A stretch of 64,000 nucleotides of DNA from an uncultured Acidobacteriota bacterium (GTDB lineage: Bacteria > Acidobacteriota > Thermoanaerobaculia > Multivoradales > UBA5704): assembly GCA_963732005.1 (NCBI GenBank), contig CAVSXT010000005.1, positions 2,638,631 to 2,702,630 on the forward strand, given 5' to 3'. Position 1 is the stretch's first letter. Each line of letters starts with the position of its first letter. The translations under genes were made by a program, and so were the position numbers. The notes under the pieces are model-generated. The model was given only the letters and a program-made list of their open reading frames with translations, did not search any database and was not told the DNA's origin. Below are positions 1,280-19,062 of the stretch, one piece after another.

Positions 1280-1540
1280 TCAGCTCGCCTCCGCGGCCGA
1301 GCTGCTGTCGAGCGCGGCGGGATCGAGGCCGTAGATCGCCATCAGCTCAGCGATCTGAGCCCAGGCGGTGTCGGAGAACGGCTGGCGGTCGGTGAAGGCG
1401 CCGCGGACCAGGTCCTCGAGGAGCTGTCCCAGGGACAGGTCGTAGAGCTCGGCGAGCGCCTTGAGCACCTTGACCATGCGCCTGTCCATGCGCACGCCGG
1501 TCTGGACGCGATCGGGTGTCGGTGGCGTTGGCTTGGTCAT
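1280..1540 (-). CDS. hypothetical small protein (86 aa, MTKPTPP...)
   Basis: Internal ATG at 1538-1540 preceded by GAGGAG. The upstream part of the track ORF is compositionally unnatural. Confidence 0.4.
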   Translation of the reverse strand: MTKPTPPTPDRVQTGVRMDRRMVKVLKALAELYDLSLGQLLEDLVRGAFTDRQPFSDTAWAQIAELMAIYGLDPAALDSSSAAEAS

Positions 1541-1740
1541 GAGAGCTGCTCCTCGACCTTCTGCACAACCAGGCGTTTGGCGATGTTCAGCCGGCCGCGC
1601 AAGTGGACCCGGCGCATGCCGCCGGTGTCGTAGCAATGAGCGAAGCTGCGCTCGAGCAGCTCCCCACGCCGGCGCAAGAGCCTCTTGCCCCGGTCACCGA
1701 TTGCAGGTCTGTTGGAGCTGGTGTAGCGCCTCCCAAGCAT
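1537..1740 (-). pseudogene. C-terminal remnant of a DDE transposase (IS4/IS5-superfamily-like tail ...ERSFAHCYDTGGMRRVHLRGRLNIAKRLVVQ)
   Basis: The 67-aa ORF matches only the conserved C-terminal tail of IS4/IS5-type transposases. No N-terminal catalytic region is present. Confidence 0.45.
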
Positions 1741-1767
1741 CGTCGCGGTTAGGTCTGCCGTCGCGCC

Positions 1768-2268
1768 TCAGCGGCCTAACCCGAGTCCACGGTCCAGGAC
1801 TCTCTCGACCGCTCGGATGGCGAGCTCGACGCGGAAGGGAAGCTCGCGGGAGAGCGTCGAGACGGCCAGCCTGGCCGCTTCCGGGCCGATCTCGCGGACG
1901 ATGGCCTCGATCGCCTTCTCGGGTCCCTTCATCGCCTGCTCCACTCGCTGCAAGGTCCTGTTGAGGTGTTGTAGCTGGTCGCGCAGTTTGGGCAGGCTTT
2001 CGCCGATGGCGTTTGCGGGCGCCTGCGCCTGGGCGGCGGCGCGCTCTGAACCGTGATAGCGATCGAGGGCGGAGCGTAGGGTGGGCACGGCGCCGAGGGC
2101 CTCCTGCTGGGTTCGATCGGGCCGGCGAAGGAGGGTCTCCGGGCGACCGTGGATCTGGCCATAGACGGCGGCGTGCCCGGCTCTGAGTCGCTCGGACGCA
2201 TGCGGGTCGGCGGTCAGGCGCTCGACCACCTGGGCCGGCTGGGTGTAGACGCGCCCGGCCGCCCACAC
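1768..2268 (-). CDS. probable frameshifted C-terminal continuation of the relaxase (would give a ~1000-aa TraA-like protein)
   Basis: This frame is open and natural-looking from ~2400 down to 1768. The relaxase frame turns into low-complexity junk after ...DYAAAAIERQA. A G/C homopolymer lies at ~2391-2403. Confidence 0.5.
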   Translation of the reverse strand: MWAAGRVYTQPAQVVERLTADPHASERLRAGHAAVYGQIHGRPETLLRRPDRTQQEALGAVPTLRSALDRYHGSERAAAQAQAPANAIGESLPKLRDQLQHLNRTLQRVEQAMKGPEKAIEAIVREIGPEAARLAVSTLSRELPFRVELAIRAVERVLDRGLGLGR

Positions 2269-4775
2269 CAGGTTGGCGCGATCGGCGGCGAGGTCGCTTG
2301 CGGCGGTGACGGCATGCTCGACGGTGGACAGGTCCCCGCGGAGGTGCTGGATCTCATGGCGTAGGTTACTGGCCTGGTTCTCGAGCGGCGCGAGGGGGCG
2401 GCCTGGCGCTCGATGGCAGCGGCGGCGTAGTCGCGGGCGAGGTCGTCCTTGGACGGGGCGCGGGAGAGGGCGCGGTCGAGGTGCTCTCGGTCGGCGAAGG
2501 TCTGGCGGTCGGTGTAGACCTGGATGTCCTGGCGATGGCGGGTGAGTGCGACGTAGGAGGCGTTGCGGTTCATCAGCGGGTCGGCGAGGACGTAGGTGCG
2601 GTCTACGGTGGCGCCCTGGCTCTTGTGGATGGTGACCGCATAGCCATGGGCGATCTGGTCGTACTGGCCGGGATGGAAGGCCACCCGGCGGCCGTCGTCG
2701 AGGCGGGCGACGAAGCGGTCGGGCGAGACGCGCTCTAGGGTTCCCAGGGTGCCATTCTTGACGCCGACGGCCTGGCCCCTGGCGCGGCCGAGGTTGGTCA
2801 CCTCGCGGCCCTGGTGGTCGTTCTTGAGAAAGACCAGGCGGTCGCCGGCGGCGTACTCGGCGCCGGCGACGGTGATGCCGGCGCGGAGCTCGCCCGCGGC
2901 CAGGCGCTGGTCGCGGATGCCGGTGTTGAGGCGGGCGACGTCGTCGTTGCGGTAGGCGAGCACCAGCTGGCCGCGGCCGGGGTCGGCGGCGCGATCGGCA
3001 GCGTAGCGGGCCAGGAGGTCGGCGCGGGCGGCGTCGCGGGTGTCGGCGACGTGGAGGCGGCCGGCCTGCTGGTAGGCGTCGAGGGCCGGGGCAACGCGGC
3101 CACCGGCGAGGTCCGCGGACGCCTCGCGCTGCCAGGGCTCGGCCTGGCGGCGGATGGTGTCGAGGCGGGCCGAGGGGTGCTGCTCGAGCAGGCCGCGAAA
3201 GGCGTCGCCGGGTCCGATCGGCTTGAGCTGGTCGGGATCGCCGACCAGGATGACCTTGGCGCGCTGGCTGGCCGCATGGTCGAGCACGCGGGAGAGCTGG
3301 CGGGCATCCACCATGCCGGCCTCGTCGACGACCAGCACGCAGCGACGGTCCAGGAAATCGCCGTGCTTCCAGGAGTACTCCCAGCTGTGGAGGGTGCGGG
3401 AGCGGATGCCGGTCTCGCGCTGCAGGCTATCGGCGGCCTTGCCGGCCAGGGCGCCGCCGAGCACGTCGTAGCCAGCCTCGCGGTAGGCGTCGGCGATGGT
3501 GGCGGCGGTGGTGGTCTTGCCGGCGCCGGCGCGGCCGACGACGAGGGCGAGGTCGTCGCGGGTGGTGGCGGCAAGGACGGCGTCGCGCTGCTCGTCGGAG
3601 AGCCGCGGCGCGCGGTCGAGGGCACGCTGGACGTCGGCGGGATCGAGGCAGAGGTCCCGGCGGGCGGCGAGCTCGCCGGCGGCGTGGAAGAGACGCGCCT
3701 CGTCGCGCAAGTAGTCGGTGGAAGCGTAGTGGTTCACGCCGCGGGCGTCCTTGCCGACGCTGGCGGTCAGGTGGCGGTCGAGCGCGCGCTCGGCAAGGGC
3801 GTGGCTGTCGGGCTCATGGAACGCAGCGCGCCGGATGTCGGCCTTGGTGAAGGTGGCGCGGGTCGCGGTGAGGCGATCGATCAGCGCCGCGGCGCGCTCG
3901 CCGCGGGTGGCGCCGGCCAGGGGCTCGCGCTCGCGGGCGCCCTCCTGGAGCTGGACCTGGGGCGGCTCGGGATGGAGCTCGCGGTGCTGGCGGAAGGTCT
4001 CGCCGAAGCGGGCGGCGAGCTTCGGGCCGCTCAGGCTGCGGTCGACCTTGGAAAGTGAGATCCGGCGGCTGCCGTCGGTGACGACCAGGCCGGAGCCGCG
4101 CTCGGCCGGTTCGAGGCGGTAGCCGAGCCCGGCGAGCGCGGCTTCGAGCTCCACCCAGCTGGTGGCCTGGGCGAAGACGTGGCCGGCCTCGTCACGGACG
4201 CGGTCGGCGAAGGGCTGGACGCCAGTGCGCATGGCCTCGCGGACGGTGCCAGCGCCGAGGTCGGGGGGTGCCTGCTCGCGGCCGGTGCGGCTGAGGTCGT
4301 ACTCGACCTCGAGGGCGGGGATGGCCTCGTGGGCATGCACCATGTCGCGGAAGGGCCGCCAGGCGCGGCCGTCGTCGCCGATGCGGTTGATGACGATGTG
4401 GATGTGCTGGTTGTCGGTGTCGCGGTGGGCGATGAGCACGGCCTGGTGGTCGGCGAGCCCCATGCGGCCGAGGACGCGGCTGGCGACGTCCTCCCACTGC
4501 TGGCGGGTGAGGTGCTCGCCGGCGGCCAGGCTCAGGCCGAAGTGGTAGACGGGCTCCTCGACCCTGGGGTTGTCGCTGGCGGTGTAGCGCATGAGCTGGG
4601 CAGCCTCGGCGGGGTTGTCGGTGTCGAGGTTGCGGGTGCTGGACCAGGCGACCCGTGCGAGGTCGGGGCGGTCGCGGTGGCCCTGCTGGAGGTAGCGGAC
4701 GAGTCCGGCGAAGCTGCGGCCAAGCCCGGTTCTGGCGCCGGTGCCGGACTTGCGGCCGCCCTTGAAGGTGGTCAT
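2214..4775 (-). CDS. conjugative relaxase: MobA/VirD2-type relaxase domain fused to a TraA/RecD-like (P-loop, UvrD_C-like) helicase
   Basis: N-terminus carries the HxH motif HIHIVINRI. Walker A GRAGAGKTTT and VLVVDEAGMV are present. C-terminal helicase motif VTIHKSQGATVDRTYV. The last ~60 aa of the track ORF are compositionally unnatural, consistent with a frameshift near 2385-2405. Confidence 0.85.
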   Translation of the reverse strand: MTTFKGGRKSGTGARTGLGRSFAGLVRYLQQGHRDRPDLARVAWSSTRNLDTDNPAEAAQLMRYTASDNPRVEEPVYHFGLSLAAGEHLTRQQWEDVASRVLGRMGLADHQAVLIAHRDTDNQHIHIVINRIGDDGRAWRPFRDMVHAHEAIPALEVEYDLSRTGREQAPPDLGAGTVREAMRTGVQPFADRVRDEAGHVFAQATSWVELEAALAGLGYRLEPAERGSGLVVTDGSRRISLSKVDRSLSGPKLAARFGETFRQHRELHPEPPQVQLQEGAREREPLAGATRGERAAALIDRLTATRATFTKADIRRAAFHEPDSHALAERALDRHLTASVGKDARGVNHYASTDYLRDEARLFHAAGELAARRDLCLDPADVQRALDRAPRLSDEQRDAVLAATTRDDLALVVGRAGAGKTTTAATIADAYREAGYDVLGGALAGKAADSLQRETGIRSRTLHSWEYSWKHGDFLDRRCVLVVDEAGMVDARQLSRVLDHAASQRAKVILVGDPDQLKPIGPGDAFRGLLEQHPSARLDTIRRQAEPWQREASADLAGGRVAPALDAYQQAGRLHVADTRDAARADLLARYAADRAADPGRGQLVLAYRNDDVARLNTGIRDQRLAAGELRAGITVAGAEYAAGDRLVFLKNDHQGREVTNLGRARGQAVGVKNGTLGTLERVSPDRFVARLDDGRRVAFHPGQYDQIAHGYAVTIHKSQGATVDRTYVLADPLMNRNASYVALTRHRQDIQVYTDRQTFADREHLDRALSRAPSKDDLARDYAAAAIERQAAPSRRSRTRPVTYAMRSSTSAGTCPPSSMPSPPQATSPPIAPTWCGRPGASTPSRPRWSSA

Positions 4776-5314
4776 CCGCGGGGCTCGTCCTGGAGGGCGC
4801 GGCGGACGGCGCGCACCTCGGCCTGGACGCTCTGGACGGCGCCAAGCAGGGCGGCCGACAGCAGGGTGCCGGAGTGGGCGAGCTTGACGAGCTGGTTGAG
4901 GTTGTTGCCGGCCCTGGCGAGCTGGACGATGGCAGCGCGGGCGAGGGGCCAGCGCGCAGTCGGCGGCCTGCCGCGTACGAGGTGGCGCAGGTAGGTACCA
5001 ACGGTGACGCCGGCGCCCTTGGCGCGGGCTTCGAGGTCAAAGTACTGGCTCGGGGTGAGCCGGGCACCCACGATGCACGACAGGGGCTCGGGCTCGGCGG
5101 CCCCACCTGCCGGGTCTCCCGCGGCGGGGGCGCAGGGCAACGCCCCGGCGGTGGCGAGGGGCGCGCCGGCAGGCGCGTCGCCGGCGGCGAGCCGATCAAG
5201 GACGGTGCGGCGGCACCAGGCGGCGGGCGCCAGCCCGGCGGCCCGCGCCGCGGCGGCCAGACGCGCATGCTCCTCGGGGGTGAGCCGGAAGGCGACGAGG
5301 TGGGACCGGCTCAT
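4772..5314 (-). CDS. mobC: MobC-family mobilisation (relaxosome accessory) protein
   Basis: Motif ...QLARAGNNLNQLVKLAHSG is the MobC signature. ATG at 5312-5314. The stop overlaps the relaxase start, giving a mobC-relaxase operon. Confidence 0.75.
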   Translation of the reverse strand: MSRSHLVAFRLTPEEHARLAAAARAAGLAPAAWCRRTVLDRLAAGDAPAGAPLATAGALPCAPAAGDPAGGAAEPEPLSCIVGARLTPSQYFDLEARAKGAGVTVGTYLRHLVRGRPPTARWPLARAAIVQLARAGNNLNQLVKLAHSGTLLSAALLGAVQSVQAEVRAVRRALQDEPRG

Positions 5315-5924
5315 GGCCGTCGCCTCGGTCCAGGGCCGCGCAGGCGCCGAGCGCAGCGAAGGCGCCCTTCCCGACCAGGCGGCCCGGCGTTGCGCTGGCG
5401 GACCGGGAGCGGGCGGCTGACGCCCCTGCTGGCGGCAACGCCGAGGGCCGGGCCCGACGCCGGTGGGCGAAGGCAACGCCGGTGGGCTGCCCGTCTGAAA
5501 CTTACCAACGACGCGCAGGTGGTGGCAGCGGCCGGGTCGATGCCGATGGAGCCACGGGTGGCGGGCGGCGAGGCAACGACGATCGACCCCCCTACCTGGA
5601 AAGCAGAGCGGAGAAGGCCGATAGACCTGCAGCGAAGCCGGCAGGGTCGGCGCTTCGACCGGTGAGTGGCACGAAGGTCGGAGAGTGCGGCGGTGACGAT
5701 TGGGGAGCGGCACCGGATGGCGGGCGGGTGCCGAGTTGCCCGGGCCGTAGCGACGTGGGACGCGACCTCGCCCGAGTCCGGGAAGGGTCGAAGAGTGATC
5801 AGCCGGGTCCGGTCCATGGCATTCGAGCCGAAGGCGAGAATGCCCCGCCTGGTAACGGAGTTAACAGGCGGCTTTCTTGCTCTCAAGCTCCTCTGAGGCC
5901 GACCTACGAGCCTGTGGGGTGCTA

Positions 5925-5975
5925 GACATCCTCATATGACCATCATATCATGATATAGACCATGAATAGTGGGTC
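5925..5975. promoter_or_regulatory. AT-rich divergent intergenic island with a 12-bp perfect palindrome ATATCATGATAT and GACCAT repeats; candidate oriT/nic or operator-promoter
   Basis: The only markedly AT-rich stretch in the mob/xis-primase region. It sits between the divergent mobC-relaxase and xis-primase operons. Confidence 0.35.
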
Positions 5976-6076
5976 ACAGTGGAGTGCAACGTGCGGTGGG
6001 AACGCCTGCCAGGGCCTCCATTGACCCCTTCAACCCGGGCCGGCTCGCCCGGCCGTACGACTGCGAGGTGATCGTG

Positions 6077-6281
6077 ATGTCCGTGCTGCTCAACACCCGG
6101 CAAGCCGCCGAACGCTGCAACCTGTCGGCGCACACCCTGGAGAAGTACCGGGTCACCGGTGGCGGACCGCCCTTCATCCGGCTGGGCAGGGCGGTCCGCT
6201 ACCAGCTCGAAGAACCTGGAAGCGTGGATCGCGGCCCACCGGCGGCGGAGCACCTCCGACGAGCTGGACGCTCGCGGTTGA
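6077..6281 (+). CDS. AlpA/Xis-like HTH excisionase/transcriptional regulator (apparent +1 frameshift near 6213)
   Basis: MSVLLNTRQAAERCNLSAHTLEKYRVTGGGPPFIRLGRAVRYQLEE, followed in the +1 frame by ...LEAWIAAHRRRSTSDELDARG*. This is the typical AlpA C-terminus. The track fuses this gene to the primase as one 719-aa ORF. Confidence 0.55.
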
Positions 6282-6298
6282 GCTGGACGCTGCCGGCG

Positions 6299-8128
6299 AT
6301 GTCCGACGACGGCGCCCAGCTGGCGGCGATCGAACGCGCCCTCGCGGCGAGGCAGGCTCGCCGCGAGGGGCGCGAGCTGCGGTTCCTGTGCCCGGCGCAC
6401 GAGGACCACCGCCCCTCGGCGCGCTGGAACCACGAGAAGCGGACATGGGTCTGCGACGTGTGCCGGACGGGTGGTGGCTGGCGCGATCTCTCGGCGCGGC
6501 TGGGCCTCGAGCTGCCGGCCGGCGGCGGCGAGCCGCTCGCCGAGGTCGAGGCGGTCTACGACTACCGCGACGGCGACGGCCGCCTGCTGTTCCAGGTGCT
6601 GCGCAAGCGGGGCAAGCAGTTCCCCTGCCGGCGGCCGCTGCCGGGCGGCGGCTGGGCCTGGAACCTCGAGGGCATTGAGCGGGTGCTCTACCGGCTGCCG
6701 GAGACGGTGGTGGCGGTGGCGGCCGGCGAGACGGTGTTCCTGGTCGAAGGGGAGAAGGACGCCGACCGCCTGGCGGCCCTGGGCCTGGCCGCCACCACCA
6801 ACCCCGGCGGCGCCAAGAAGTGGCGGGCGGCCTACGGCGCGGCGCTGCGCGGCGCCCGAGTGGTGATCCTGCCGGACAACGACCTGGCGGGCCGGGAGCG
6901 TGCCGGCACGGTCGCCAGGAGCCTGACGACGATGCGCGGTGGCGCCGCGGCGGAGGTGGGGATGCTCGAGCTGGCGGGTCTGCCCGAGAAGGGCGACGTG
7001 TCGGACTGGATCGCGGAGCGGGAGCGGGCGGGACGGCCGGCGGCGGAGATCCGCCGCGAGCTCGGGGAGCTGGCGGCCGCGGCGCCCACGGTGTTGCCGG
7101 CGGACCTCTCGCCGGCGGGATCCCCGGCGGGGCGTCGGTCGCGTGTCCGCCGCGCTTCGGATGTGCCGCCGCAGGCGGTGGTCTTCCTGTGGCAGCCCTA
7201 CATCGCGTGCGGCAAGCTGACGCTGCTCGAGGGCGATCCCGGGCAGGGCAAGAGCTGGATCGCCGCGGCGCTGGCCACCGCGGGCTCGCGCGGCCAGGGC
7301 CTGCCCGGCGCGGCGCCGTTTGCGCCCTTCCGGACGCTGATCTTCACCGCCGAGGACGGCCTGGGCGACACGCTGCGCCCGCGGCTCGACCTGCTGGGGG
7401 CCGACTGCGACGCGGTGTTCCTGCACGACCAGCCGCTCGACCTTGCCCAGGCCGACGACTTTGCCGAGATCGAGCAGGCGCTGGCCGAGCACCGGCCGCG
7501 CCTGGTCATCCTGGACCCGATCGTGGCCTATCTCGGCGCGAAGACCGACGCCTATCGCGCCAACGAGGTGCGGGCGATCCTCGCCCCGCTGGCGCGGCTC
7601 GCCGACCGCCACGGCTGCGCGGTGCTCGCCGTGCGCCACCTCAACAAGTCGCGGGGGAGCCGCAGCATCTACGCCGGCCAGGGCTCGATCGACTTCACCG
7701 CCGCGGCGCGCTCGGTGCTGCTGGCCGGCTGCGGCGCCGATGACGACGCCGAGCGGGCGCTGGTGCACATCAAGTCCAATCTCGCCGCGGTCGGGCCGAC
7801 CCTGGCCTATGCCATCGACGAGCAGGGCTTCCGCTGGGCCGGGGCGAGCCCGTTGCGGGCCAGCGACCTGCTGGCGCCGGAGGCCACCGGCAACGACCTG
7901 TCCTCGCTCGACGAGGCGCGGGCCTTCCTGCGCAGCCTGCTCGGCGCCGGCCCGGTGAGCACCAACGAGATCTGGGCCGCCGCCCGCCAGGCGGGGATCG
8001 CCGAGCACACCCTGCGCCGCGCCAAGCAGCTCGAGGGCATCGTTGCCCGCCGCCAGGGCTACGGGACGGGCGGCAGCTGGCGCTGGTCGCTGGACGGACC
8101 GCCGGCCGCGCCGGCGGGGGAGGGGTGA
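6299..8128 (+). CDS. phage/plasmid-type bifunctional primase-helicase (CHC2-like zinc finger, Toprim, AAA_25/RepA-like P-loop)
   Basis: Zinc-finger motif LRFLCPAHEDH...WVCDVCRTGGG. Toprim motif FLVEGEKDADRL...VILPDNDLAGRE. Walker A EGDPGQGKSW, plus LVILDPIVAY and AVRHLNKS. Confidence 0.8.
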   Translation: MSDDGAQLAAIERALAARQARREGRELRFLCPAHEDHRPSARWNHEKRTWVCDVCRTGGGWRDLSARLGLELPAGGGEPLAEVEAVYDYRDGDGRLLFQVLRKRGKQFPCRRPLPGGGWAWNLEGIERVLYRLPETVVAVAAGETVFLVEGEKDADRLAALGLAATTNPGGAKKWRAAYGAALRGARVVILPDNDLAGRERAGTVARSLTTMRGGAAAEVGMLELAGLPEKGDVSDWIAERERAGRPAAEIRRELGELAAAAPTVLPADLSPAGSPAGRRSRVRRASDVPPQAVVFLWQPYIACGKLTLLEGDPGQGKSWIAAALATAGSRGQGLPGAAPFAPFRTLIFTAEDGLGDTLRPRLDLLGADCDAVFLHDQPLDLAQADDFAEIEQALAEHRPRLVILDPIVAYLGAKTDAYRANEVRAILAPLARLADRHGCAVLAVRHLNKSRGSRSIYAGQGSIDFTAAARSVLLAGCGADDDAERALVHIKSNLAAVGPTLAYAIDEQGFRWAGASPLRASDLLAPEATGNDLSSLDEARAFLRSLLGAGPVSTNEIWAAARQAGIAEHTLRRAKQLEGIVARRQGYGTGGSWRWSLDGPPAAPAGEG

Positions 8129-8161
8129 TGGCCTAGCGGGGTCGCGGCGGCGCGCAGGCGT

Positions 8162-8393
8162 CCATAGATGGCCAAGCTCCCCATATATGGAGGTTGGTCA
8201 TCTATGGGTGGGAATGCGGGCTGGGACGGTCCCGTCCGGCGAGCCGATGCGCTTTTCTCGGGCAGGCTCTGGCGTGCTCTGGCGAACGCGGGAGGGCGTG
8301 GAATGGCGCGAGGCGGCGAGCCGGCCGGAGTTCGCGAGGGGACAGCCGCCGGGGCGTGGCCGGCCGGACCGGCGCTGGCTTGGCCATCTATGG
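8162..8393. repeat. four copies of a CCAT(A/C)(G/T)ATGG-type palindromic motif (ccatagatgg, ccatatatgg, tcatctatgg, ccatctatgg)
   Basis: Seen directly at ~8162, 8181, 8198 and 8384. The array lies between the primase stop and the next gene. Confidence 0.5.
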
Positions 8394-8480
8394 TGCGGCG
8401 GCTCCAACCCGGGCAGACCGGGGGTGTTTGGAGGGCGCCGAGCGACCCTGGAAACGTGAGACGGACGACCCGGAGACCCG

Positions 8481-9149
8481 ATGACATCTCGCCGCGCCGG
8501 CCTTGCCATCGCCCTCGCCGCCATCCTGGTCCAGGCACCGCGCCTGGTGCTGGCGCTGCTTGCCGCCGACCGGCTGCCGGTGGCGGCCCCGACCGAGCGT
8601 GCCCTGCTGGTGCTGGCCGGGATCGGCACCGCCTTGGTGCTGACCGGCGGCAACCTCTACCTGGCTCACACCGTCGCCCAGGTGCGGCCATGGCGGCGGA
8701 CACTGGCGGCCACCTGGCTGGCGGTGCTGGCCGCCTCGGGCGGCCTGGTCCTGCCGTTGATCGTCGCCGGGCTGTCCGCGCGCACCCTGCCCGAGATCCT
8801 TGGCGCCGGCAGGCTCGCCTGGCCGTGGGCGGTGCTCGCCGCGATCGCGCACGAGCTGACCGCTGCCGGCTGCGTGCTGGCAGGCGCTGCCTGGGCCGCT
8901 CAGGCTGGTGGCGCAGCCGGAGTGGGGACGGCGCCGCGGGTCGCTGCCGCCATCGAGCTGCCGGCAGGCAGCGAGGCCGGCCTGCCGGCAGGAGCGGCGG
9001 CCGGTGGTGCGCCGCCGCAGGCTGCGGCGCAGGGAATCGCTTGCCGCGCGGGCTGCGGCAGAAGGTTCGGGTCCCAGCAGGCCGAGATCGCTCACCTTCG
9101 GCATTGCCCCCGCCGGCAGGCTCGCGCCGGCGCGGAGCCCGCGAACTGA
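8481..9149 (+). CDS. hypothetical integral membrane protein with a Cys-rich C-terminal tail
   Basis: Several hydrophobic helices. Natural-looking composition. No family recognised. Confidence 0.4.
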   Translation: MTSRRAGLAIALAAILVQAPRLVLALLAADRLPVAAPTERALLVLAGIGTALVLTGGNLYLAHTVAQVRPWRRTLAATWLAVLAASGGLVLPLIVAGLSARTLPEILGAGRLAWPWAVLAAIAHELTAAGCVLAGAAWAAQAGGAAGVGTAPRVAAAIELPAGSEAGLPAGAAAGGAPPQAAAQGIACRAGCGRRFGSQQAEIAHLRHCPRRQARAGAEPAN

Positions 9150-9192
9150 CCGCCGCTCCGGGTGACAACTCGTGCGGCTGGCAGGCGGGCGT

Positions 9193-9340
9193 TGCCGGCA
9201 CTCTGCCAGGTCGCTGCCGGAGCTTCGCGGTGCTGGTGGTGGCCCAGCGGCACCGTGCCGGCACCCGCCTCCTGGACCTGCCGGCACGGTGCCGGCACTC
9301 CCGCAAGCCCTGCCGGCACTTCGGCGAGGCCTGCCGGCAC
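9193..9340. repeat. iteron-like array: six copies of TGCCGGCAC (palindromic 8-mer TGCCGGCA) within ~150 bp
   Basis: Copies at ~9193, 9256, 9279, 9290, 9311 and 9332, with spacings of 63, 23, 11, 21 and 21 bp. Overlapping track ORFs are compositionally unnatural. Confidence 0.6.
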
Positions 9341-10383
9341 GCCAGCCGGCAGGCTGCCACGGCCTGCTGGCCGCTGCGGGTCGAGCACCGTGGCAGCGGT
9401 TCGGGGATCGCGCCTGCCGTGGCCGCTCGACGAGTGGTCGCCGATCGGCGATCGCGTGCGGGTGGTGCTCGCAGCGGTCGCTCGCGGCGCTGCCGTGGGC
9501 GGCGGCGTCGCGTTGGCGAGTCCCGGCGGCAAGGGCAGGTCGCCCGTGCGGTGCAGCGTCGGCAAGCGGAGCAGCATGCCGGTGGCCGCGAAGGCGGGCA
9601 ACGGCGATGCAAGGGCAGGGCAGCCAGGAAAAAAACCAGCGTCTGTACCGGCATCACCGTCCACCTTGGCCGAGCAGCGACAGCCAGGGTTCCCTACCGA
9701 TAATGTCAACTTAACGCAAGGCAGGAGCCCTCATGACCGGTCGTGGTGAAGCGGCGTTCGGAGCGCGGGCGGGTCGCGCCTCGCCCTGCTGCGTCTGACT
9801 TGCGATAAGAGATTGATATCAAGCCCGCAGGGGAGCCGAGATCATTCTCGGCCGAGCCCTGCGTGACGCCGTAGCTCAAAGCGGTAGGTGGGGCAGCTCG
9901 GCGGGCCGCCGCCGGGCGCGCCGCCGGCCTCGGTCCCACCGCCGGCAGCGCCATCTATGACGGCCGCTCGGGTCGGTGCGGTCACCACGGTGCTCTCGAA
10001 TTTCGCGCCCAGAGCGAAGCGGAGGGCGCGAACCAACCGGCCCCCGGGCGCCGGGCAACCTGCGATGGGCAAGCAGGTGCTCGCCCGTGGGGCTTCCTTG
10101 ATTCGATGACGACGCTCGCGAAGCGAGCGGAAAAACGATTGCTCTGGCAACCTGGCCGCAGCCAGACAGGGCCGGGGGCACCTGCGTGCGCGATCACTCA
10201 TCGACCTCATGACCGGCCGCCTCAATGAGGCCGTGGATGGACGAGCATGGCCAGCGCCGGTCTCGAGCAGGACCGGGGGAGCCTCATTGCTTGAAGCGTC
10301 GCCGATAGGAGCCGGCCGGCCGGCGCACCGGGTGCTCCTCCTCGTTGCGATGCAGTCCCAGGATCTGTCCACTCCCAGCTGGC

Positions 10384-10659
10384 TCAGCGGACCACCAGGT
10401 GTCTCAACTCGATCGGTTTCCCGGTTAGCAGGGAATAGAGCACGTCAGGGTCGAGATCGGCGCCGTTTGGCCAGGATACGGTTCCATGTTCGGCGTCGAC
10501 CCGCACCTTGGCGACCTCTCTGGCGTCGCGCAGGGGCTCGAAGACTCCCTTGAATTCGATGAGCTTCGATAGATCGATCTCGCCCTCCACTCCGTCCTCG
10601 AAACGAAGGTAGAGCTTGTGTTCTCCGGCAGGTCGAGCTTCCACGATGTCTTTCAGCAT
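10384..10659 (-). CDS. DUF2442-family protein
   Basis: ...WPNGADLDPDVLY... is typical of DUF2442. Forms an operon with the upstream DUF4160 gene. Confidence 0.7.
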   Translation of the reverse strand: MLKDIVEARPAGEHKLYLRFEDGVEGEIDLSKLIEFKGVFEPLRDAREVAKVRVDAEHGTVSWPNGADLDPDVLYSLLTGKPIELRHLVVR

Positions 10660-10662
10660 GGC

Positions 10663-10923
10663 TCACTCCAAGGGAGCAATCTGCACGAGCGGCTCCTGCT
10701 TCCGGGCCAGCTCCCAGTCGGTTAGAAGCTCAGCCCTGTGCAACGCAGCCCATTCCACGACGAGTCCCAGCACCCTTGGCGTCAGCTCGCCGTACAGGAT
10801 GGTTAGCGATTCGATATCGATGATCGCCTTCAGCTCGCCGTAGCGCGCGTGGAAGTGCGGCGGCGGATGATCGTTATAGTACAGCGAGATGACAATGCCT
10901 AAGAACCGGCTGACCTCTGGCAT
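10663..10923 (-). CDS. DUF4160-family protein
   Basis: MPEVSRFLGIVISLYYNDHPPPHFHARYGE... is the conserved DUF4160 N-terminus. Internal ATG at 10921-10923. Confidence 0.7.
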   Translation of the reverse strand: MPEVSRFLGIVISLYYNDHPPPHFHARYGELKAIIDIESLTILYGELTPRVLGLVVEWAALHRAELLTDWELARKQEPLVQIAPLE

Positions 10924-11310
10924 CTGAGTCGTGTTCTCCTGGACACCACAGCGCAAGTCAGGCGCTGAACCACCGCCCCATGGGCCGGCCGGTCGGCCTC
11001 CGGCTCAGTCTGGAGAGCCCGAATGGCCCCGAGAGCCTGTCAGCCTCCAGCCCCGCCTTGAGAACCGGGAAGACCTTTTCGTCATAGCCGGATTCATCCG
11101 CGAGCCACTCGCGCACGAGCTCGAGCGCCCGGGCGTTCCGGGCACGCAGGTCGTCGGCAATCGTAGCTTCTGGGTGTGACCTCTGCTGTTGGGTGGCCAC
11201 CCTTTCTTCTTTGGCTTCGAAGCGGGCCAGTAAGCGCCATAGCCAGTTTATACCTGCGGAGGGGAGGGGAGCGCCGGCCGGCGCTCTCTCGAGGTCGGAT
11301 CGCGGTGGCC

Positions 11311-11988
11311 TCACCAGCCCCCTCGCGCGTAAAGCGACTCCCACTGGCCGGCGGCGCCGAGCACCAGGTGGTCGAGGAGGTCGACGCCAAGGAGCGCCGC
11401 GGCGTCCGCCAGCTGGTGGGTGAAGCTCAGATCCTCCGGCCTGGGCGTCGGACCGCCACTGGGGCGGGTGTGGAAGACCACGAAGCCGCTGGCGCCGCGG
11501 AGCAGGCATTGTTTGAGGATCTCCCGTGGTTCGACCGCGGTGCGGTGGAGAGTGCCGCGGTAGATCTCCTGCTCGCCGAGGAGACGGTGACGGGTGTCGA
11601 GGAACAGGGCGCCCAGCACCTCCTGGTCGCGCTGCCGGTAGCGGAGCGCGAGGAAGCGGGCGACCTCGTCGGGGCGGGTGAGGGGGCGGCGGACCGGGAT
11701 GCGCTGGCGCGCCAGGCGGCAGGCGATCTCGAGGGCCGCGAGCAGCGCCGACGCCTGGGTGTCGCGAAGGCCCCGGAGCCGCAGCACCGCTCGCGACGTT
11801 TCCGGGAGTGCGGCGAGCCCGCCCTCGTCGGTCAGGAGCTTGCGGGCGAGCCGGAGGGATGTGCGGTGGGCGCGGCCGCCCGCGAGCAGCACGCCGAGCA
11901 CTTCGGCATCGGTGATCGCGTGCAGGTGGCGCTCGAAGCGGTCGGTCGCGGCGCTGACTTGGGCGGCGACGCCGGCGTCACACTTCAT
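11311..11988 (-). CDS. RadC-like JAB/MPN-domain protein (common mobile-element cargo)
   Basis: JAB-like motif VVFHTRPSGGPTPRPEDLSFTHQL with the RadC-type C-terminus. Confidence 0.75.
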   Translation of the reverse strand: MKCDAGVAAQVSAATDRFERHLHAITDAEVLGVLLAGGRAHRTSLRLARKLLTDEGGLAALPETSRAVLRLRGLRDTQASALLAALEIACRLARQRIPVRRPLTRPDEVARFLALRYRQRDQEVLGALFLDTRHRLLGEQEIYRGTLHRTAVEPREILKQCLLRGASGFVVFHTRPSGGPTPRPEDLSFTHQLADAAALLGVDLLDHLVLGAAGQWESLYARGGW

Positions 11989-12319
11989 GGAACGTCACCC
12001 CATAGGGTGCCTCCGGTACGGCTTGGATGCGGACGAACGCCTGGCGGCGCGACTCGGGCAGGTCGGACGCCGCCTCTTCGAGGCGGGTCCACAGGGCCAG
12101 CCAGCGCCCGCCCGCGAACAGCACGACCAGGCCGGCCTCGTCGGGCGAATAGTCGGGATACCAGTCGCCGCGCGCGATTTCGGCGGGCGGGGCCGGCGCG
12201 GTGAAGTGGACGGCGACGACGATGTCGTAAAGGGCGCGGCGGGTGGCTTCGGTGTAGACCTCGAGGTCGAGGCCGGGGGGCAGGGACGCGGGGTTGGTAG
12301 AATCCTGCTCGCTGCGCAT
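11978..12319 (-). CDS. hypothetical protein (113 aa) upstream of the RadC-like gene
   Basis: ATG at 12317-12319. Natural composition. Overlaps the RadC-like gene start by 11 nt. Confidence 0.4.
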   Translation of the reverse strand: MRSEQDSTNPASLPPGLDLEVYTEATRRALYDIVVAVHFTAPAPPAEIARGDWYPDYSPDEAGLVVLFAGGRWLALWTRLEEAASDLPESRRQAFVRIQAVPEAPYGVTFHEV

Positions 12320-12460
12320 GGGGGATCCTCCCGTGCGTGGTAGGCCTCGGCATTGGGTTACCGCCCGTGCCGGGGCCGCTTTCCGGTGGATGAGGAGGGG
12401 CAATCCCTCCCCGCTGTGCTCCTCTCTCTCGTCCTCCTTCCTGGCGTCGCCGGTGCGGGC

Positions 12461-13240
12461 CTACGGCAGGGGCCGAGGCTCGAACCGCAGCACGCGGCCC
12501 TCCTGCCGCTCACCGCGCAGCGCCGCGGCCAGGCCGCCGGCGATCAGGTCGGCCGCCGCGAGCAGCTGCTCCGGCCGCAGGTGGGTGTAGATGTCGTGCA
12601 CGTCGCGGCCCAGCGAATGGCCCATCAGGCGCATCCGGATCTCGCGTGGCACGCCGAAGTAGGCGGCGGTGCTGTTGAAGGTATGGCGCGTCGCGTCGTA
12701 GAGGCGCATCCGCGCCGGCAGCTCGGCGCGCGCCGCCAAGCGCTCCCAGAGCCGCTTGAGATCCGACATGGGGCCGGAGCTCCGGCCGGGAAAGATGAGG
12801 TCCCCGCAGCAGGGTAGGGCGCGCAGCAGATCGATCGCCGGGCGTCCCAGGTAAACCGACCGCGGCCCCGCCTTGGACGCCGGCAGGTGCCAGATGCGCG
12901 CGTCGAGGTCGATCGCTTCCCAGCGGGCGTTGAGGGCCTCGCCCGGCCGGCAGCCGGTCAGGAGCATGAAGGTGAACGCCGCCGCCGGTGTCGAGTCCTG
13001 GCGCTCCTTGCGCAGGGCCTCGCCGAGTCGCCCGAGCGCCGCCATGTCGAGCGCCTGGCCGCGCCGCTCCTCGTGGTGGCGGTCGTGGCCCTGGGCCGGG
13101 TTCGGCATCTCGCGCGGCCACCAGCCCCAGCGCGCGGCCAGCGCCCACGCCTTCGAGCAGGCGGCCAGCACACCGTCCGGCGCCGCCGGCGGCCGGCGTA
13201 ATATCGCCGCCGCACCGGCGTCAATACATGTAACTGTCAT
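12461..13240 (-). CDS. tyrosine recombinase/integrase, catalytic domain only; N-terminal arm/core-binding domain apparently missing
   Basis: LLTGCRPGE (box I Arg), ...HTFNST..., LMGHSLGRDVHDIYTHL (His/Tyr). Only ~95 aa precede the catalytic domain. The ATG at 13238-13240 abuts an AT-rich junction. Confidence 0.7.
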   Translation of the reverse strand: MTVTCIDAGAAAILRRPPAAPDGVLAACSKAWALAARWGWWPREMPNPAQGHDRHHEERRGQALDMAALGRLGEALRKERQDSTPAAAFTFMLLTGCRPGEALNARWEAIDLDARIWHLPASKAGPRSVYLGRPAIDLLRALPCCGDLIFPGRSSGPMSDLKRLWERLAARAELPARMRLYDATRHTFNSTAAYFGVPREIRMRLMGHSLGRDVHDIYTHLRPEQLLAAADLIAGGLAAALRGERQEGRVLRFEPRPLP

Positions 13241-13276
13241 AACACTAATTGGACGCGGAGCGTCCGGGAGAAGACC

Positions 13277-13765
13277 ATGACGAGAATTCAGCGCAGCGTT
13301 TTCCTCGCAGTGGCGGCCTGTACGTTGTTGGGCGGCGCGGCCCACGGCGGCGACCTGCAGGAGAAGAACAAGGCGGTGGCCCGCCGTGTCTTCGACGACA
13401 TCTTCAACCGCGGCCGGCTGGAGGTCGCCGGCGAGATCTATGCCCCGGATTTCGTCGACCACGGCCTGCAGAGAGACACCGGCCTGCGCCAAGACCAGGC
13501 AGCGGTGCGCGGCTGGCGGATGGCAGCCCCCGACCTGGTGATGACCGTCGATCAGATGCTGGCCGAAGGTGACCGCGTCTGCGTCCTGTGGACCGGTCGC
13601 GGCACCAACACCGGCGAAGGCAACGGCCTGCCCGCCAGCGGCAAGCGCTTCGCGCTGCGCGGCATCACCATCTGGCGCATCGAGGGAGGCCGGATCCGCG
13701 AGGAGTGGTCCGAGTTCGACATGTTGGGCCTGCTGCGCCAGACCGGCGTGCTGCCGCCGGGCTGA
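13277..13765 (+). CDS. SnoaL-like/ester-cyclase-family secreted protein
   Basis: Signal peptide MTRIQRSVFLAVAACTLLGGAAHG. The SnoaL-like core resembles the gene at 59677-60234. Confidence 0.6.
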   Translation: MTRIQRSVFLAVAACTLLGGAAHGGDLQEKNKAVARRVFDDIFNRGRLEVAGEIYAPDFVDHGLQRDTGLRQDQAAVRGWRMAAPDLVMTVDQMLAEGDRVCVLWTGRGTNTGEGNGLPASGKRFALRGITIWRIEGGRIREEWSEFDMLGLLRQTGVLPPG

Positions 13766-14281
13766 GGCGGCGCCTCGGCAGCGGCACCGACCATACTCTG
13801 AAACTCTTGGACTTGCTTGACTGTCAGATCGATCATGGGTTGTACCGAGATCATCTGCTCAAGCGCGCATACGAACTCTGCCGGTCCCCGCCGCCAGGTC
13901 CGCGCCAGATCCACGGCAGGCACAAGAAGTCGCCAGCGAGGCGGCCGGGCTACAGATCCCGGACCAGCTCGGCAGCCGTCGTCTCCAGAGCCTTTGCAAA
14001 CTTGCAGATGTTCAGCAGGGAGATGTTCCGGCGGCCCCGCGAGCCGTTGCTCGCCGGGGACCTGGCGGGCGTGTGGCGGACTACCTGGAACTTCGCGTCG
14101 AGTATCGACGCTTGATGCGGACGCTGGCTCCGATTCTTTCAGCTCTGCATCGATAGCGGCTCAGCTGTAATCGGTGGCCGCCTGGCCCGACCTTCGCGAG
14201 CTCGATCACTTGGGGTTGCTGACCATGGCCCTTCTCAGGCGCGAGGGCTTGTGGGATCGGGCTGGTCGGCTGGGGTTAGCG

Positions 14282-14548
14282 GCCGAGGCCGAGTCCGCGG
14301 TCCAAAAACTCTCTCGACCGCTCGGATGGCGAGCTCGACGCGGAAGGGAAGCTCGCGGGGGAGCGCCGAGACGGCCAGCCTGGCCGCTTCCGGCCCTATC
14401 TCGCGGACGATGGCCTCCATCGCCTTCTCGGGTCCCTTCATCGCCTGCTCCACTTGCTGCAAGGCCCTGTTGAGGTGTTGTAGCTGATCGCGCAGTTTGG
14501 GCAGGCTTTCGCCAATGGCGTTCGCGGCGGCCTGCGTCCTCGGCCGAG
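14282..14548 (-). pseudogene. 3'-terminal fragment of a relaxase gene; ~270-bp direct repeat (~90% identity) of 1780-2050
   Basis: Nucleotide identity is visible by eye. Translation (...NAIGESLPKLRDQLQHLNRALQQVEQAMKGPEKAMEAIVREIGPEAARLAVS...) parallels the relaxase C-terminus. The flanks diverge. Confidence 0.75.
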
Positions 14549-14700
14549 TACCCCCGGCCGCACTTCGCGCCATCGCGGTACAGCCGGGGGCGGACGCCGA
14601 AGGGCTTGAGCTGGCGGGCGAGCTGGACCGCGGACATGGTCCGGCCGTGCCGCCCAGGGCGGCCCACAGCAGGGTGCACTAGTTGGATGCGCAATCCCAA

Positions 14701-14961
14701 TCACTGTCCACCAAGTTGTAGGTGTCGTTCCTCTCGTGCCCTCGGTTTGACACCTGAGAGATCGAGCTTCTCCACGAGCCGGCGTCTTGCGCGCAGCGTT
14801 TCAGTCTCTGCCAGCAATCCGCGTCGGTGAAGTCTGGTGATTGCATCGGCGTCGCGCTGTAGGTCATCGAGGAGCGTCGCAGAACCAGGCTCCGGCTGTG
14901 GGTATCCAAGCTGTTCCGCGAGAGATGGCGCCGAGGCGCCAAACCTTAGGGTCAAGGACAT
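14701..14961 (-). CDS. hypothetical small protein (86 aa) downstream of a ~130-bp AT-rich island
   Basis: Internal ATG at 14959-14961. No family recognised. Confidence 0.3.
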   Translation of the reverse strand: MSLTLRFGASAPSLAEQLGYPQPEPGSATLLDDLQRDADAITRLHRRGLLAETETLRARRRLVEKLDLSGVKPRAREERHLQLGGQ

Positions 14962-15258
14962 ATTCACTCCTTTCCTAATCCCATCTTGTTGAAATTCACA
15001 CTTCGAAAGAAAACTTAGCACAGGAGTTTTGCGAACTACAACAGAGTTATTGACAAATGCCGATATCACTGCGGTGATCCATCAGGGTGCGCCAGGGTGC
15101 GCGCCGCGAACCCGGCCCAAGCTGTCCAGCTCTCCTGGGTGACGAGTTATGCTCTCGGCGGCAGTAAGTCGGCAAAGCAGCGGCGTCGCACAGCTGGCGG
15201 TCTTTGTTTTCGCTCTCCAATTAGCGGCCGGACAACCGGGCAACGCGACCCCAGGGCC

Positions 15259-15573: not shown

Positions 15574-15923
15574 GGTTGCTCCCTTCTCTTAGAGGAGGCC
15601 GCGAAGCTGGTTGCGGGTGAGTGAGCTCGCAGTCGCGCAAAATCGCAGCCAGAAGGCCCGGTCCGATTCTCTCCCCCGCGTGGACCGGGACGACCGTCGT
15701 GCGACCGTCTGCATGCCTCAGCGATGCTGGCTCGCCAGCTCCGACGGCTGGGTCGGTAGTGAGGGCGGTGGCCAGCGTCGCTCCTGTTCGCCTCCGAGCT
15801 TTCCGCCCGATCGCGGCACCGAGCGGCTCGCTGGCCCCGCGGCGCCCGGTCGGACTCGCCGAGGAGCTCGCGACCGAGCTGGGTGGCCTTCCCGCGGCAG
15901 CGGCCGCCGGTTCCGAGTTTCCT

Positions 15924-16358
15924 TCAGTTTTCGATGAGACGATTCTTCCAGCGCAGGCCGGGAAAGCGAGCGAAGTCTGCATCCGTCGTGCAGATCTCGA
16001 GGTCATGCTCGACCGCGAGGGCGGCAAGATGCGCGTCGGTGGTCAGATTGCCACCCGCGCCGGTCGACCTTAGAAAGCCGAAGAGGATCGCGGCATGCCG
16101 CTCGCCGGGGTGGAGCACAGAAACCTGTGGTCTGGTCAGCCATGACTCGACGATCTCGCAGGCGGCGGCTACAGCGAGGGGGTTCGCGGAAATCTGGCGG
16201 TGGGTCGCCAGGCGCAAGAACCCGAGAATGACCACCCAGGGCAGCTGGACCGGCGAATCCTCCGTCATCCGTCCTTCCCACCACCTTCGTGCGACCGCGT
16301 GCGCCGGGGAATGGGAGTTGTATGCGTGGAGGAGCAGATTGACGTCGGGGAGGATCAC
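15924..16358 (-). CDS. vapC: PIN-domain toxin VapC
   Basis: MILPDVNLLL... N-terminus. ...TTDAHLAALAVEHDLEICTTDADFARFPGL C-terminus with the acidic PIN residues. Confidence 0.8.
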   Translation of the reverse strand: MILPDVNLLLHAYNSHSPAHAVARRWWEGRMTEDSPVQLPWVVILGFLRLATHRQISANPLAVAAACEIVESWLTRPQVSVLHPGERHAAILFGFLRSTGAGGNLTTDAHLAALAVEHDLEICTTDADFARFPGLRWKNRLIEN

Positions 16359-16615
16359 TCCCTGACCTTCTGCGCGGTTGCCGCAGCTTCCAGATCGTCC
16401 ACCAGCTGATTCATCTTGTCGAGGTCGATCCCGGCCGCGAACTGGAAGTCGTGGGGCTGCACGCGGAACGGCTCCCGTGCGCTAGCCAATCCCCTGAGTC
16501 CAAGGCGTGAGCGCAGCGCGTCGTTCACCAGAGCCTCTGCTGGCTTTCCCGCGCGGCGGACTTCTTGCTCGATCCGCTCGGCGACATCCGGGTCGAGAGT
16601 CACGGTGATGGCCAT
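16355..16615 (-). CDS. vapB: VapB-type antitoxin
   Basis: 86-aa protein immediately upstream of vapC. Its stop overlaps the vapC start by 4 nt. Confidence 0.65.
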   Translation of the reverse strand: MAITVTLDPDVAERIEQEVRRAGKPAEALVNDALRSRLGLRGLASAREPFRVQPHDFQFAAGIDLDKMNQLVDDLEAAATAQKVRE

Positions 16616-16859
16616 GGGCCGATGATGTTGTCACCGGCGAGGGTTGTCAAGGGCGGGAGCACTGCGGATGCTGCTGCGCCTGACAGCGGGCGGCGACGCG
16701 CGCCCACCGCCAAGGCCAGATCCTGACTGGCCCAGGCGGTGAACGTGGTGACCTTCAGTCTAGCCAAGGGGCCACGCTGGGGAGGGAGGGCTCGTAGCGG
16801 ATCAGCATCGAAGTCGTGACGCCCGCCCGCCGCCCCGCCAAGGGGAAGACGTCAGCGAA

Positions 16860-17015
16860 TCACTGGCTGCAGGTGTTGACTGGGCAGAAGGTGAATCCCC
16901 GCGTCGGGAGGCAGGGCACCGTGCTCCCGCCTCCGGCCACCTCGCGGAGCGTGTCGGGCGAGGCAAGCTGGCGCAGGGTTTCGCGGTAGAGCAGGAGCTT
17001 GCGGCTCTTCTTCAT
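16860..17015 (-). CDS. small Cys-containing peptide P1 with a double-Gly leader-like N-terminus (MKKSRKLLLYRETLRQLASPDTLREVAGGG / STVPCLPTRGFTFCPVNTCSQ)
   Basis: Strong RBS AAGGAGA 7 nt upstream of ATG 17013-17015. Paralogous to P2 and P3. Confidence 0.5.
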   Translation of the reverse strand: MKKSRKLLLYRETLRQLASPDTLREVAGGGSTVPCLPTRGFTFCPVNTCSQ

Positions 17016-17204
17016 GATCTGTTCTCCTTGTCGATGATGATCCGCTAGTGCCGGCGTGTCCGGCCGGCCTTTCAAGAAGGGTAGTGCTGCGGCTCTACCT
17101 GCTCGTGACCAGCGCGGCGGCCAGGGCGCGGCCGCTTCTTGGGTCCGGGGCGGAGCAGTCCTCCCCTAAGCCAAGACCGTACAGCAGGTTACGCCTTTCA
17201 CCGC

Positions 17205-17540
17205 GGCTATCCTCTCGTCGACGACCAGGACGCTGCCGGCATGAAGCTGCGACTCCCCACGATCCCGGGAGTACTTGCAGCTGTGCAGGGTGCGAGAGCG
17301 GATGCCGGCTTCTGCCGCAAGGTGCCGGCGGCCTTGCTGCCAGGGCGGCGCCGATGACCTGGTAGCCGGCCTCGCGATAGGCGTCGCCGATCGTCGCGGC
17401 CGCCGTGGTCTCGCCGGCACTGGCGCGGCCGACGATCAGGGCGAGGTCGTCGCGGGCAGTGCATCACGCGGCGCGCGTCCTTGCCTACCGTCACTATCCG
17501 GTCGCGGTCGAGCGCCCGCTGGGGGCGCCGTGCCTATCTT
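17205..17540 (-). pseudogene. internally deleted relaxase gene remnant (homologous to 3300-3790, the VLVVDEAGM/P-loop region)
   Basis: Clear nucleotide similarity in the same orientation with an internal deletion. Overlapping track ORFs are junk. Confidence 0.7.
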
Positions 17541-17627
17541 GGCGAATTGCCTTGAATTAGATATGGTAAAACATGGGAATGATCCCCGATCTGCCGGGCT
17601 GCATTCAGCGGCGCCAAAGGAGATTCG

Positions 17628-18999: not shown

Positions 19000-19062
19000 C
19001 GCGAGGGCATCGTGGCCCGGCGCCAAGGCTACGGGCCCGGCGGCAGCCGGCGCGTCAGGGGT
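19000..19062. repeat. ~60-bp remnant homologous to the 3' end of the primase-helicase gene (8030-8080)
   Basis: gagggcatcgtggcccggcgccaaggctacgggcccggcggcagccggcgc versus gagggcatcgttgcccgccgccagggctacgggacgggcggcagctggcgc. Confidence 0.45.

Follow-up and report, generated by a model that had tools for sequence, protein, structure and literature searches.

Relics of related mobilisable elements in a Thermoanaerobaculia genome: a probable case of tandem accretion followed by decay

Tandem arrays of integrative and mobilisable elements (IMEs), or of integrative and conjugative elements with cis-mobilisable elements (ICE-CIME), formed by accretion at tRNA genes, are known from the ICESt1-related islands of Streptococcus thermophilus and from the IME_Sag2603_tRNAlys composite island (PMC5704250). 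The route described for IMEs leads from integration through decay to the accretion of a new IME at the attachment (att) site that carries the tRNA end (PMC5704250). The stretch of DNA considered here, 64,000 nucleotides from an uncultured bacterium of the Thermoanaerobaculia (Acidobacteriota; contig CAVSXT010000005.1, positions 2,638,631 to 2,702,630) and referred to as the window, holds some 19 kb of mobile-element debris (1.5-19.1 kb). Probably at least three related IMEs, here called E1, E2 and E3 and belonging to one Thermoanaerobaculia family, accreted in tandem in this region and then decayed. In our best reading E1 is the newest of them, nearly complete and recently immobilised: its backbone is whole, its integrase is truncated and has no att site, and its alpA and relaxase genes are frameshifted.

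Like the streptococcal arrays, the region has related, co-oriented elements side by side, with older members that are without integration and transfer genes; in both, tRNA 3' ends are the targets of tyrosine integrases, and integration and mobilisation modules are combined with cargo. Unlike those arrays, it has none of the defining attL, attI and attR sites within the window, and even its newest member appears to be dead; moreover, the host is acidobacterial and the element family is unrelated. The tandem arrays of SGI1 (PMC5704250) also consist of several copies of a mobilisable island lying head to tail at one site, but these are identical, fresh copies, whereas the window holds diverged lineages of different age, mostly as fragments. 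A further likeness is to the many small genomic islands and phage satellites that encode an integrase, AlpA and a primase-helicase, in which an HTH_17 gene lies beside a CHC2-zinc-ribbon/AAA_25 primase-helicase with a tyrosine integrase; to this set the family in the window adds a block resembling an origin of transfer (oriT), NikA/MobC and a relaxase-helicase, a complete mobilisation module that is missing from most of the distant primase-helicase loci.

The comparisons below were made with the contexts of the closest relaxases and with 57 metagenome loci, cited by number (L081 and so on). When the window was compared with itself by blastn, a direct repeat was found, 92.1% identical over 267 nt (E=1.7e-105), with a gap-free core of 229 nt (1799-2027 versus 14308-14536) at 95% identity:

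1770..2034, minus strand: copy A, the last ~88 codons and the stop of E1's own relaxase, inside a 7.9-kb block 93% identical to L081
14278..14544, minus strand: copy B, read as a relic of the relaxase 3' end of the older neighbouring element E2

A preliminary description of this DNA, made from its letters, had reported direct repeats of ~270 bp and ~90% identity, both coding for the relaxase C-terminus; the self-comparison bears this out, and the coordinates given there (1780-2050 and 14282-14548) are 4-16 nt away from those found here. Copy B translates into the same final ~85 residues of the relaxase, with a frameshift (+1 T) 11 codons before the stop, and its homology ends sharply at both edges, the stop codon and 14544. 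It is 92% identical to copy A, 89.9% to L081 and, over 147 nt, 91.8% to L117/L118, with 70-80% identity to the other relatives. Between A and B 19 sense codons differ, 11 synonymously and 8 not, where synonymous sites make up 26% (P=0.0035); since the differences are mostly synonymous, the two sequences seem to have diverged as functional genes in two separate elements and not by duplication in place. In a three-way comparison that offers few informative sites, L081 sides with copy A at 13 variable sites and with copy B at 4 scattered ones, and no switch of parentage is seen. The two copies lie about one element length apart (12.5 kb). The repeat structure is not an assembly artefact: short-read contigs from other runs (ERR11718639 and SRR28011779) carry the side with the truncated integrase, the SnoaL-like gene and copy B at 99.9% identity, and likewise the side with copy A and the left flank, and they end inside the repeat. 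As judged from these alignments, the 267-bp repeat is the same segment of the relaxase gene surviving in two neighbouring members of the array, and is neither an att site nor a pair of element ends.

The remains assigned to E2 and E3 lie to the right of E1:

13202..14277, plus strand: spacer from the truncated integrase to copy B, with a SnoaL-like gene (13277-13765) and 510 nt without relatives
15908..17112, minus strand: E2 remnants in two stretches, 15908-16652 and 16822-17112
17214..17523, minus strand: relic C, assigned to E3, a fragment of the relaxase helicase domain (residues ~327-485) with an internal deletion and a frameshift
19002..19053, plus strand: relic of a primase-helicase 3' end, assigned to E3, 52 nt, colinear with relic C, 88% identical to 8032-8083 and also matching L081

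The first of the two E2 stretches, which includes a ribbon-helix-helix (RHH) gene at 16355-16615, is 86% identical to the left-arm cargo beside attL of the L086 element, and the second is 88% identical to L102 3722-4018; the spacer probably belongs to the right-arm cargo of E2. The relaxase nearest to relic C is the intact one of L088, at 88-92% identity, those of E1, L081 and all other relatives reaching only 78-80%. Copy B and relic C are thus of different lineages, and at least three elements must therefore have occupied the site. The relics are colinear and co-oriented with E1, running as primase-helicase tail, relaxase middle, left-arm cargo, relaxase 3' end and E1 integrase, so that remains of at least two further related elements adjoin E1 on its right in its own orientation, as the members of an array do. 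Decay is also graded across the members: E1, at 93% identity to L081 over 7.9 kb, shows point lesions only, and E2 and E3 are fragments. Of the two related elements, the second largely deleted, that the preliminary description had proposed as a tandem or nested insertion, the tandem arrangement in one orientation stands, and their number has to be raised to at least three generations, relic C being L088-like. The features it listed are otherwise present; it had passed over the relics at 15908-16652, 16822-17112, 17214-17523 and 19002-19053 and a relic of an IS1182-family insertion sequence (IS).

At 62-66%, the G+C content of 14000-24000 is below that of the chromosomal part of the window (70-72% at 48-64 kb) and of the E1 backbone (73-77%); the codon-position signal of this stretch is weak, fitting old foreign DNA in decay. 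An open reading frame (ORF) at 19114-19965 was considered as the E3 counterpart of the 222/260-aa gene of the family and discarded, having no similarity to it. Also set aside were the matches from an unfiltered tblastx of 13.2-24.6 kb against the family loci, which reflect high-GC composition; the strictly filtered search of the same segment gave nothing beyond the matches seen at the DNA level. A second SnoaL-like gene lies at 59734-60120, apparently in the chromosomal part, and is a 33% identical paralogue of the one at 13277-13765.

Intact relatives from Thermoanaerobaculia metagenomes are single IMEs of 12-13 kb with 45-49 nt of a tRNA 3' end copied at their borders; in L084, L086 and L096 the terminal repeats, this tRNA sequence included, span 47-97 nt. 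In L084, an element of 12.2 kb, the repeat is perfect and 47 nt long (4471-4517 and 16628-16674), and its right copy forms the 3' end of tRNA-Gly(TCC). A perfect repeat of this kind, of 49 nt, bounds L086, and L096 has a similar end repeat together with a decayed duplicate of the integrase-to-att end just outside attL. Other members of the family adjoin tRNA-Thr(CGT), tRNA-Cys(GCA) or tRNA-Gln, and the family integrases are interchangeable, targeting tRNA-Gly, Thr, Cys and, probably, Gln. Upstream of the full-length integrase gene of L088, at a distance of 140 nt, stands a partial tRNA-Thr(CGT) copy consisting of 45 nt of the 3' end, and in L087, which has the module order of E1, a complete tRNA-Thr is found 5 kb downstream of the relaxase; by such neighbourhoods the integrase type of E1 is linked to tRNA-Thr(CGT). 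The backbone has a conserved order throughout the family (222-260-aa gene, iteron-like array, primase-helicase, HTH_17, a ~75-nt hairpin block, NikA/MobC, relaxase), after which come the variable cargo and the tyrosine integrase. No mating-pore genes were seen in any fetched member, and the conjugation machinery of a helper must therefore be needed for transfer. Relatives of the primase-helicase in a genome scan are spread across phyla, often near an integrase and without the relaxase module, and they do not serve to define the ends of E1.

This comparison does away with the idea that the relaxase repeats bracket the element: the intact relatives end in tRNA-containing repeats and not in relaxase sequence, and A and B are equivalent positions in neighbouring elements. 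The preliminary description had named, as what would speak against it, relatives whose element is single and intact and lies in no repeat-bounded structure. Such relatives are what was found; they tell against the bracketing and leave the tandem arrangement untouched. Direct att repeats are present in L084, L086 and L096 and in part in L088, and in the window the sole flanking repeat is relaxase coding sequence, for which reason E1 is classed as a decayed member of the IME family. The designation as a decayed integrative or mobilisable element is supported: E1 has a site-specific recombinase of its own, recognised by a Phage_integrase domain though the gene is truncated, and a mobilisation module (relaxase-helicase, NikA/MobC and hairpin block) without mating-pore genes, as do L081-L084. 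Relaxase relics or duplicated ends also occur in L088, L096, L094/L115, L102, L108, L110, L117/L118, L128, L132 and L141, and L088 holds side by side an intact relaxase, a second relaxase relic, a partial att copy and an integrase.

A working element of this kind would insert by means of its tyrosine integrase into the 3' end of a tRNA gene, would carry an AlpA-like regulator or excisionase and a primase-helicase by an iteron-like array, and would have a mobilisation set made up of the oriT-like hairpin block, the NikA/MobC accessory protein and the TraA-like relaxase-helicase. E1 would then extend from ~13201 down to 1768, plus an unspecified amount of cargo leftward; of E2, from ~17112 to 13202, there would remain only cargo of the left and right arms and copy B, the final 267 bp of the relaxase; and E3, from 19053 to 17214, would be left with a primase-helicase tail and the relaxase helicase fragment. 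E1 would lie nearest to a predicted tRNA-Thr(CGT) to the left of the window, and E2 and E3 would have been displaced from it and worn down by deletions. Both the order of arrival and the tRNA-Thr target left of the window are predictions from this arrangement. A single deletion would have removed the att junction of E1 and E2 together with the N-terminus of the E1 integrase.

Several observations weigh against this account. No tRNA gene and no partial tRNA or att copy was found anywhere in the window, so that neither an E1/E2 junction nor an outer site-specific junction can be demonstrated; the att site of E1 must have gone along with the N-terminal part of its integrase. The attL, attI and attR expected between and around the members of an array are missing, the expected spot being the deletion that truncated the integrase. 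For 13202-14277 and 14545-15907 there are no relatives in any fetched locus, and these stretches are assigned to E2 by position only. The left end of E1 is undefined, with the IS1182 relic at the relaxase stop; this relic abuts the stop codon directly, which makes a further rearrangement breakpoint exactly at the boundary between backbone and cargo. As no att junction survives in the window, the strength of the accretion reading is limited.

The two relaxase copies might instead have been made by one RecA-dependent crossover of Campbell type between a circular E1, as an excised IME or a plasmid, and a resident relic of the relaxase 3' end. The repeats do enclose one full turn of an element, since the path from copy B through the spacer, integrase, RadC, primase-helicase and mobC to the relaxase of copy A follows the circular order of L081; they are long and similar enough for homologous recombination, and no att junction is visible in the window. 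We nevertheless consider such an origin unlikely, because no switch of parentage was seen at the few informative sites of the repeat, the family demonstrably uses tRNA att sites, and a later deletion accounts equally well for the truncated integrase and the lost att site. It would also still need an older resident element, which makes it a variant of the tandem picture. Alternatively, copy B and the SnoaL spacer could be E1's own, a scar of cargo exchange between elements by recombination at the relaxase 3' end before E1 arrived. The relaxase stop codon is a recurrent boundary of backbone and cargo (more than 20 loci). Downstream of an intact relaxase, L082 carries a 61-nt fragment of such a gene, at ~820 nt, and L094/L115 carry relics of one; L117/L118 are mosaic, ~93% identical to A upstream and nearer to B in the 3' end. 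Copy B, however, lies on the integrase side of E1, past the truncated integrase, where an att site is expected; in no fetched relative is the spacer or a scar like copy B found at that position, and the colinear relics further to the right are left unexplained, for which reasons this history too seems improbable.

Duplication of the relaxase end of E1 in situ, or a mis-join of reads from two strains, would fit a spacing of about one element length and the breaking of the short-read contigs within the repeat. Either is hardly credible: the contigs of ERR11718639 and SRR28011779 reproduce both sides independently, and a divergence of 8% biased towards synonymous change is unexpected for a copy decaying beside an E1 with few point lesions. 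Tandem accretion followed by decay is therefore retained as the reading of the region. A further idea is that recombination in this element family may favour the relaxase 3' end as its junction. It is suggested by the backbone/cargo boundary at the stop codon in more than 20 members (the homology of the family stops at window 1764-1772), by the mosaic 3' ends of L117/L118 and by the relaxase fragments that pile up beside integrases and att sites; we hold it to be doubtful, with little chance of being right. If it were true, repeats like A and B would be a substrate for the swapping of cargo, the formation of hybrids or the looping out of a circle without a working integrase. The relaxase relics at L088 11865-13086 and window 17214-17523 (~71% mutual identity) both cover residues ~290-485 of the helicase domain, that of L088 lying just upstream of the partial att copy; the shared breakpoint may be due to chance or preference.

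Genes were called in this ~70% G+C DNA by third-position G+C and then checked with Pfam and NCBIfam. From the left, the features of E1 and its left border are as follows:

1537..1767, minus strand: relic of the C-terminus of an IS1182-family transposase (weak match to NCBIfam NF033551, positions 432-466 of 488, E=0.006)
1768..4775, minus strand: relaxase/helicase pseudogene (Pfam Relaxase, TraI_middle and AAA_30), 1002 aa when repaired
4772..5314, minus strand: NikA/MobC-type relaxosome accessory gene (Pfam), intact, 180 aa, 88% identical over its full length to the L081 protein
5811..5886, minus strand: candidate oriT, a non-coding block of ~75 nt with two adjacent hairpins between alpA and mobC, from an alignment of 11 loci
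6044..6278, plus strand: AlpA-like gene (Pfam HTH_17), frameshifted
6224..8128, plus strand: primase-helicase (Pfam, CHC2 zinc ribbon and AAA_25), intact, 94.6% identical over all 634 aa of the L081 protein
8481..9149, plus strand: conserved backbone gene of 222 aa, intact, 97% identical to the 222-aa protein of L081
9193..9340, no strand: iteron-like array, six copies of TGCCGGCAC by motif count, partly at 21-nt spacing
9309..9685, minus strand: shattered pseudogene, homologous across three frames to a 233-aa gene of L081
10384-10659, minus strand: DUF2442 gene (Pfam/NCBIfam), cargo
10663-10956, minus strand: DUF4160 gene (Pfam/NCBIfam), cargo, paired with DUF2442
11311-11988, minus strand: RadC-like JAB gene (Pfam), intact, in a region 83% identical in nucleotides to L081 16703-17781
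11981-12274, minus strand: conserved 96-aa gene overlapping RadC, intact
12461..13201, minus strand: tyrosine integrase of E1 (Pfam Phage_integrase), catalytic part only

The assignment of 1537-1767 to IS1182 leans also on a motif typical of that family. All of the genes that had been listed for the element beforehand (relaxase/helicase, MobC, AlpA, primase-helicase, DUF4160/DUF2442, RadC and integrase) are present by Pfam and NCBIfam, its iteron-like repeats are real, and several genes are indeed damaged: the relaxase has lost 1 nt, alpA has gained 1 nt, the integrase is truncated at its N-terminus and one gene is shattered. Identity to L081 is 93.3% over 7.9 kb (window 1765-9582) and 83% at 11294-12382.

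The relaxase gene is broken by a 1-nt deletion within ~2394-2427 into an ORF of 853 aa (2214-4775) and a C-terminal ORF (1768-2418); the missing G is present in 8 of 8 aligned relatives. Among 8000 candidates scored there were 523 relaxase relatives at E<=1e-20. The repaired protein aligns over 100% of its length to intact homologs of 1001-1002 aa, the best being P0001 at 94% identity, with P0002 to P0007 at ~77%; the sources of these homologs are mostly Thermoanaerobaculia metagenome-assembled genomes and soil metagenomes. These relatives are annotated at source as Ti-type TraA, and like the TraA of Rhizobiales plasmids the protein has a matching RecD-like helicase part and ~1000 aa with an extra C-terminal region. 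Its N-terminal nuclease, in contrast, is of the MobA/VirD2-like family PF03432, nearest to TraI/MobA(P), where hits of the Sphingomonas-type TraA carry PF03389, and the DNA matches to Rhizobium and Mesorhizobium traA span only 34-56 nt. The score against NCBIfam TraA_Ti (TIGR02768) is 469.7 bits, below the cut-off of 590.45, and covers profile positions 250-739 only; the E1 relaxase is related to Ti-type TraA but differs in its nuclease domain, and is not a TIGR02768 equivalog. A search of a plasmid database with window 1-20 kb gave no close plasmid and, apart from these short traA matches, nothing else.

The stop of mobC overlaps the relaxase start. In alpA an extra A near 6212, absent in 7 of 7 aligned relatives, shifts the frame, so that the N-terminal part now reads into the primase-helicase ORF. 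The 222-aa protein has no Pfam match and belongs to no known family. Two longer ORFs, one of 511 aa at 8168-9703 and a 313-aa version of MobC, were rejected as over-long open frames of high-GC DNA, the real genes being 8481-9149 and 4772-5314. The RadC-like and 96-aa proteins are both full-length matches to proteins of L082. In L082 the RadC/96-aa/integrase module is inverted relative to the window, and an IS21-like insertion (a Mu-transposase C-terminal domain and IstB) lies at 4036-5587 inside the element, adjoining an integrase fragment.

The E1 integrase is 88.6% identical over 245 aa to the ~395-aa integrase of L088, from about residue 150 onward. It is without the ~150 N-terminal residues that make up the arm-binding and most of the core-binding domain; homology ends at 13168-13201, and the SnoaL-like gene on the opposite strand takes the place of the missing region. 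The truncated integrase is probably non-functional. No ORF of 1-24.6 kb matches type IV secretion system or coupling-protein families in Pfam or NCBIfam. From these lesions it is predicted that E1 can no longer excise or be mobilised in trans.

The block at 5811-5886 is a candidate oriT by its position and structure: as DNA it folds at -20.3 kcal/mol (z=-2.72), and its conservation in distant relatives exceeds that of the genes on either side, as in L088 (93%, versus ~80% for the relaxase). An Rfam scan of 1-25 kb, hairpin block included, gave no matches. The iteron-like array is a candidate replication origin or protein-binding array. In the whole window TGCCGGCAC occurs 11 times, versus 2.05 expected, and arrays of TGCCGGCA(C) hold the same position just downstream of the 222/260-aa gene across family members (L081 4419-4613, L084 5698-5829, L086 5675-5732, L087 6021-6152, L096 5703-5775 and L099 4816-4874).

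L081 also has an 84-nt direct repeat (98.8%) at 2842-2925 and 19257-19340, 16.4 kb apart, with a third partial copy at 17807-17862; the left copy may run into an opposite-strand reading frame that resembles a recombinase. In the window there is one partial homolog, at 9742-9831, between DUF2442 and the shattered pseudogene. It was considered whether the L081 repeat is an att site and 9742-9831 an attP-type junction; only the flank and ~35 nt of the repeat recur in the window, L081 has no tRNA and a third partial copy exists, and the candidate was not used.

Outside the debris, the gene cut by the start of the window is represented in another assembly by a protein of 442 aa, with homologs 53-66% identical, and contains a 99-nt direct repeat (13-111 and 235-333, 88%) that is probably an internal repeat of the protein. 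An apparently intact IS1634-family transposase gene (20771-22414, plus strand; 547 aa, 392 bits to NF033559) sits in the low-G+C stretch between the element relics and a gene for a non-ribosomal peptide synthetase (NRPS), with a fragment of a Big_5 domain just upstream at 20156-20698. The NRPS is encoded by a single ORF of 7694 aa (24657-47738, minus strand) with repeated condensation, AMP-binding and PP-binding modules, which appear as internal DNA repeats of 65-73%, and a sulfotransferase and thioesterase at its C-terminal end; a methyltransferase gene (47713-48825) comes after it.

The pile-up and decay of such islands is a well-known and ordinary route, and the biology seen here is standard and presents no challenge to current understanding. 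The Thermoanaerobaculia IME family was not found described in the libraries searched, no literature search having been aimed at it, and it appears to be abundant in soil Thermoanaerobaculia. For annotation, it follows that the 267-bp repeat should not be read as an att site or as the boundary of an island, and the sketch of the family given here is useful for the cataloguing of mobile elements in poorly studied phyla.

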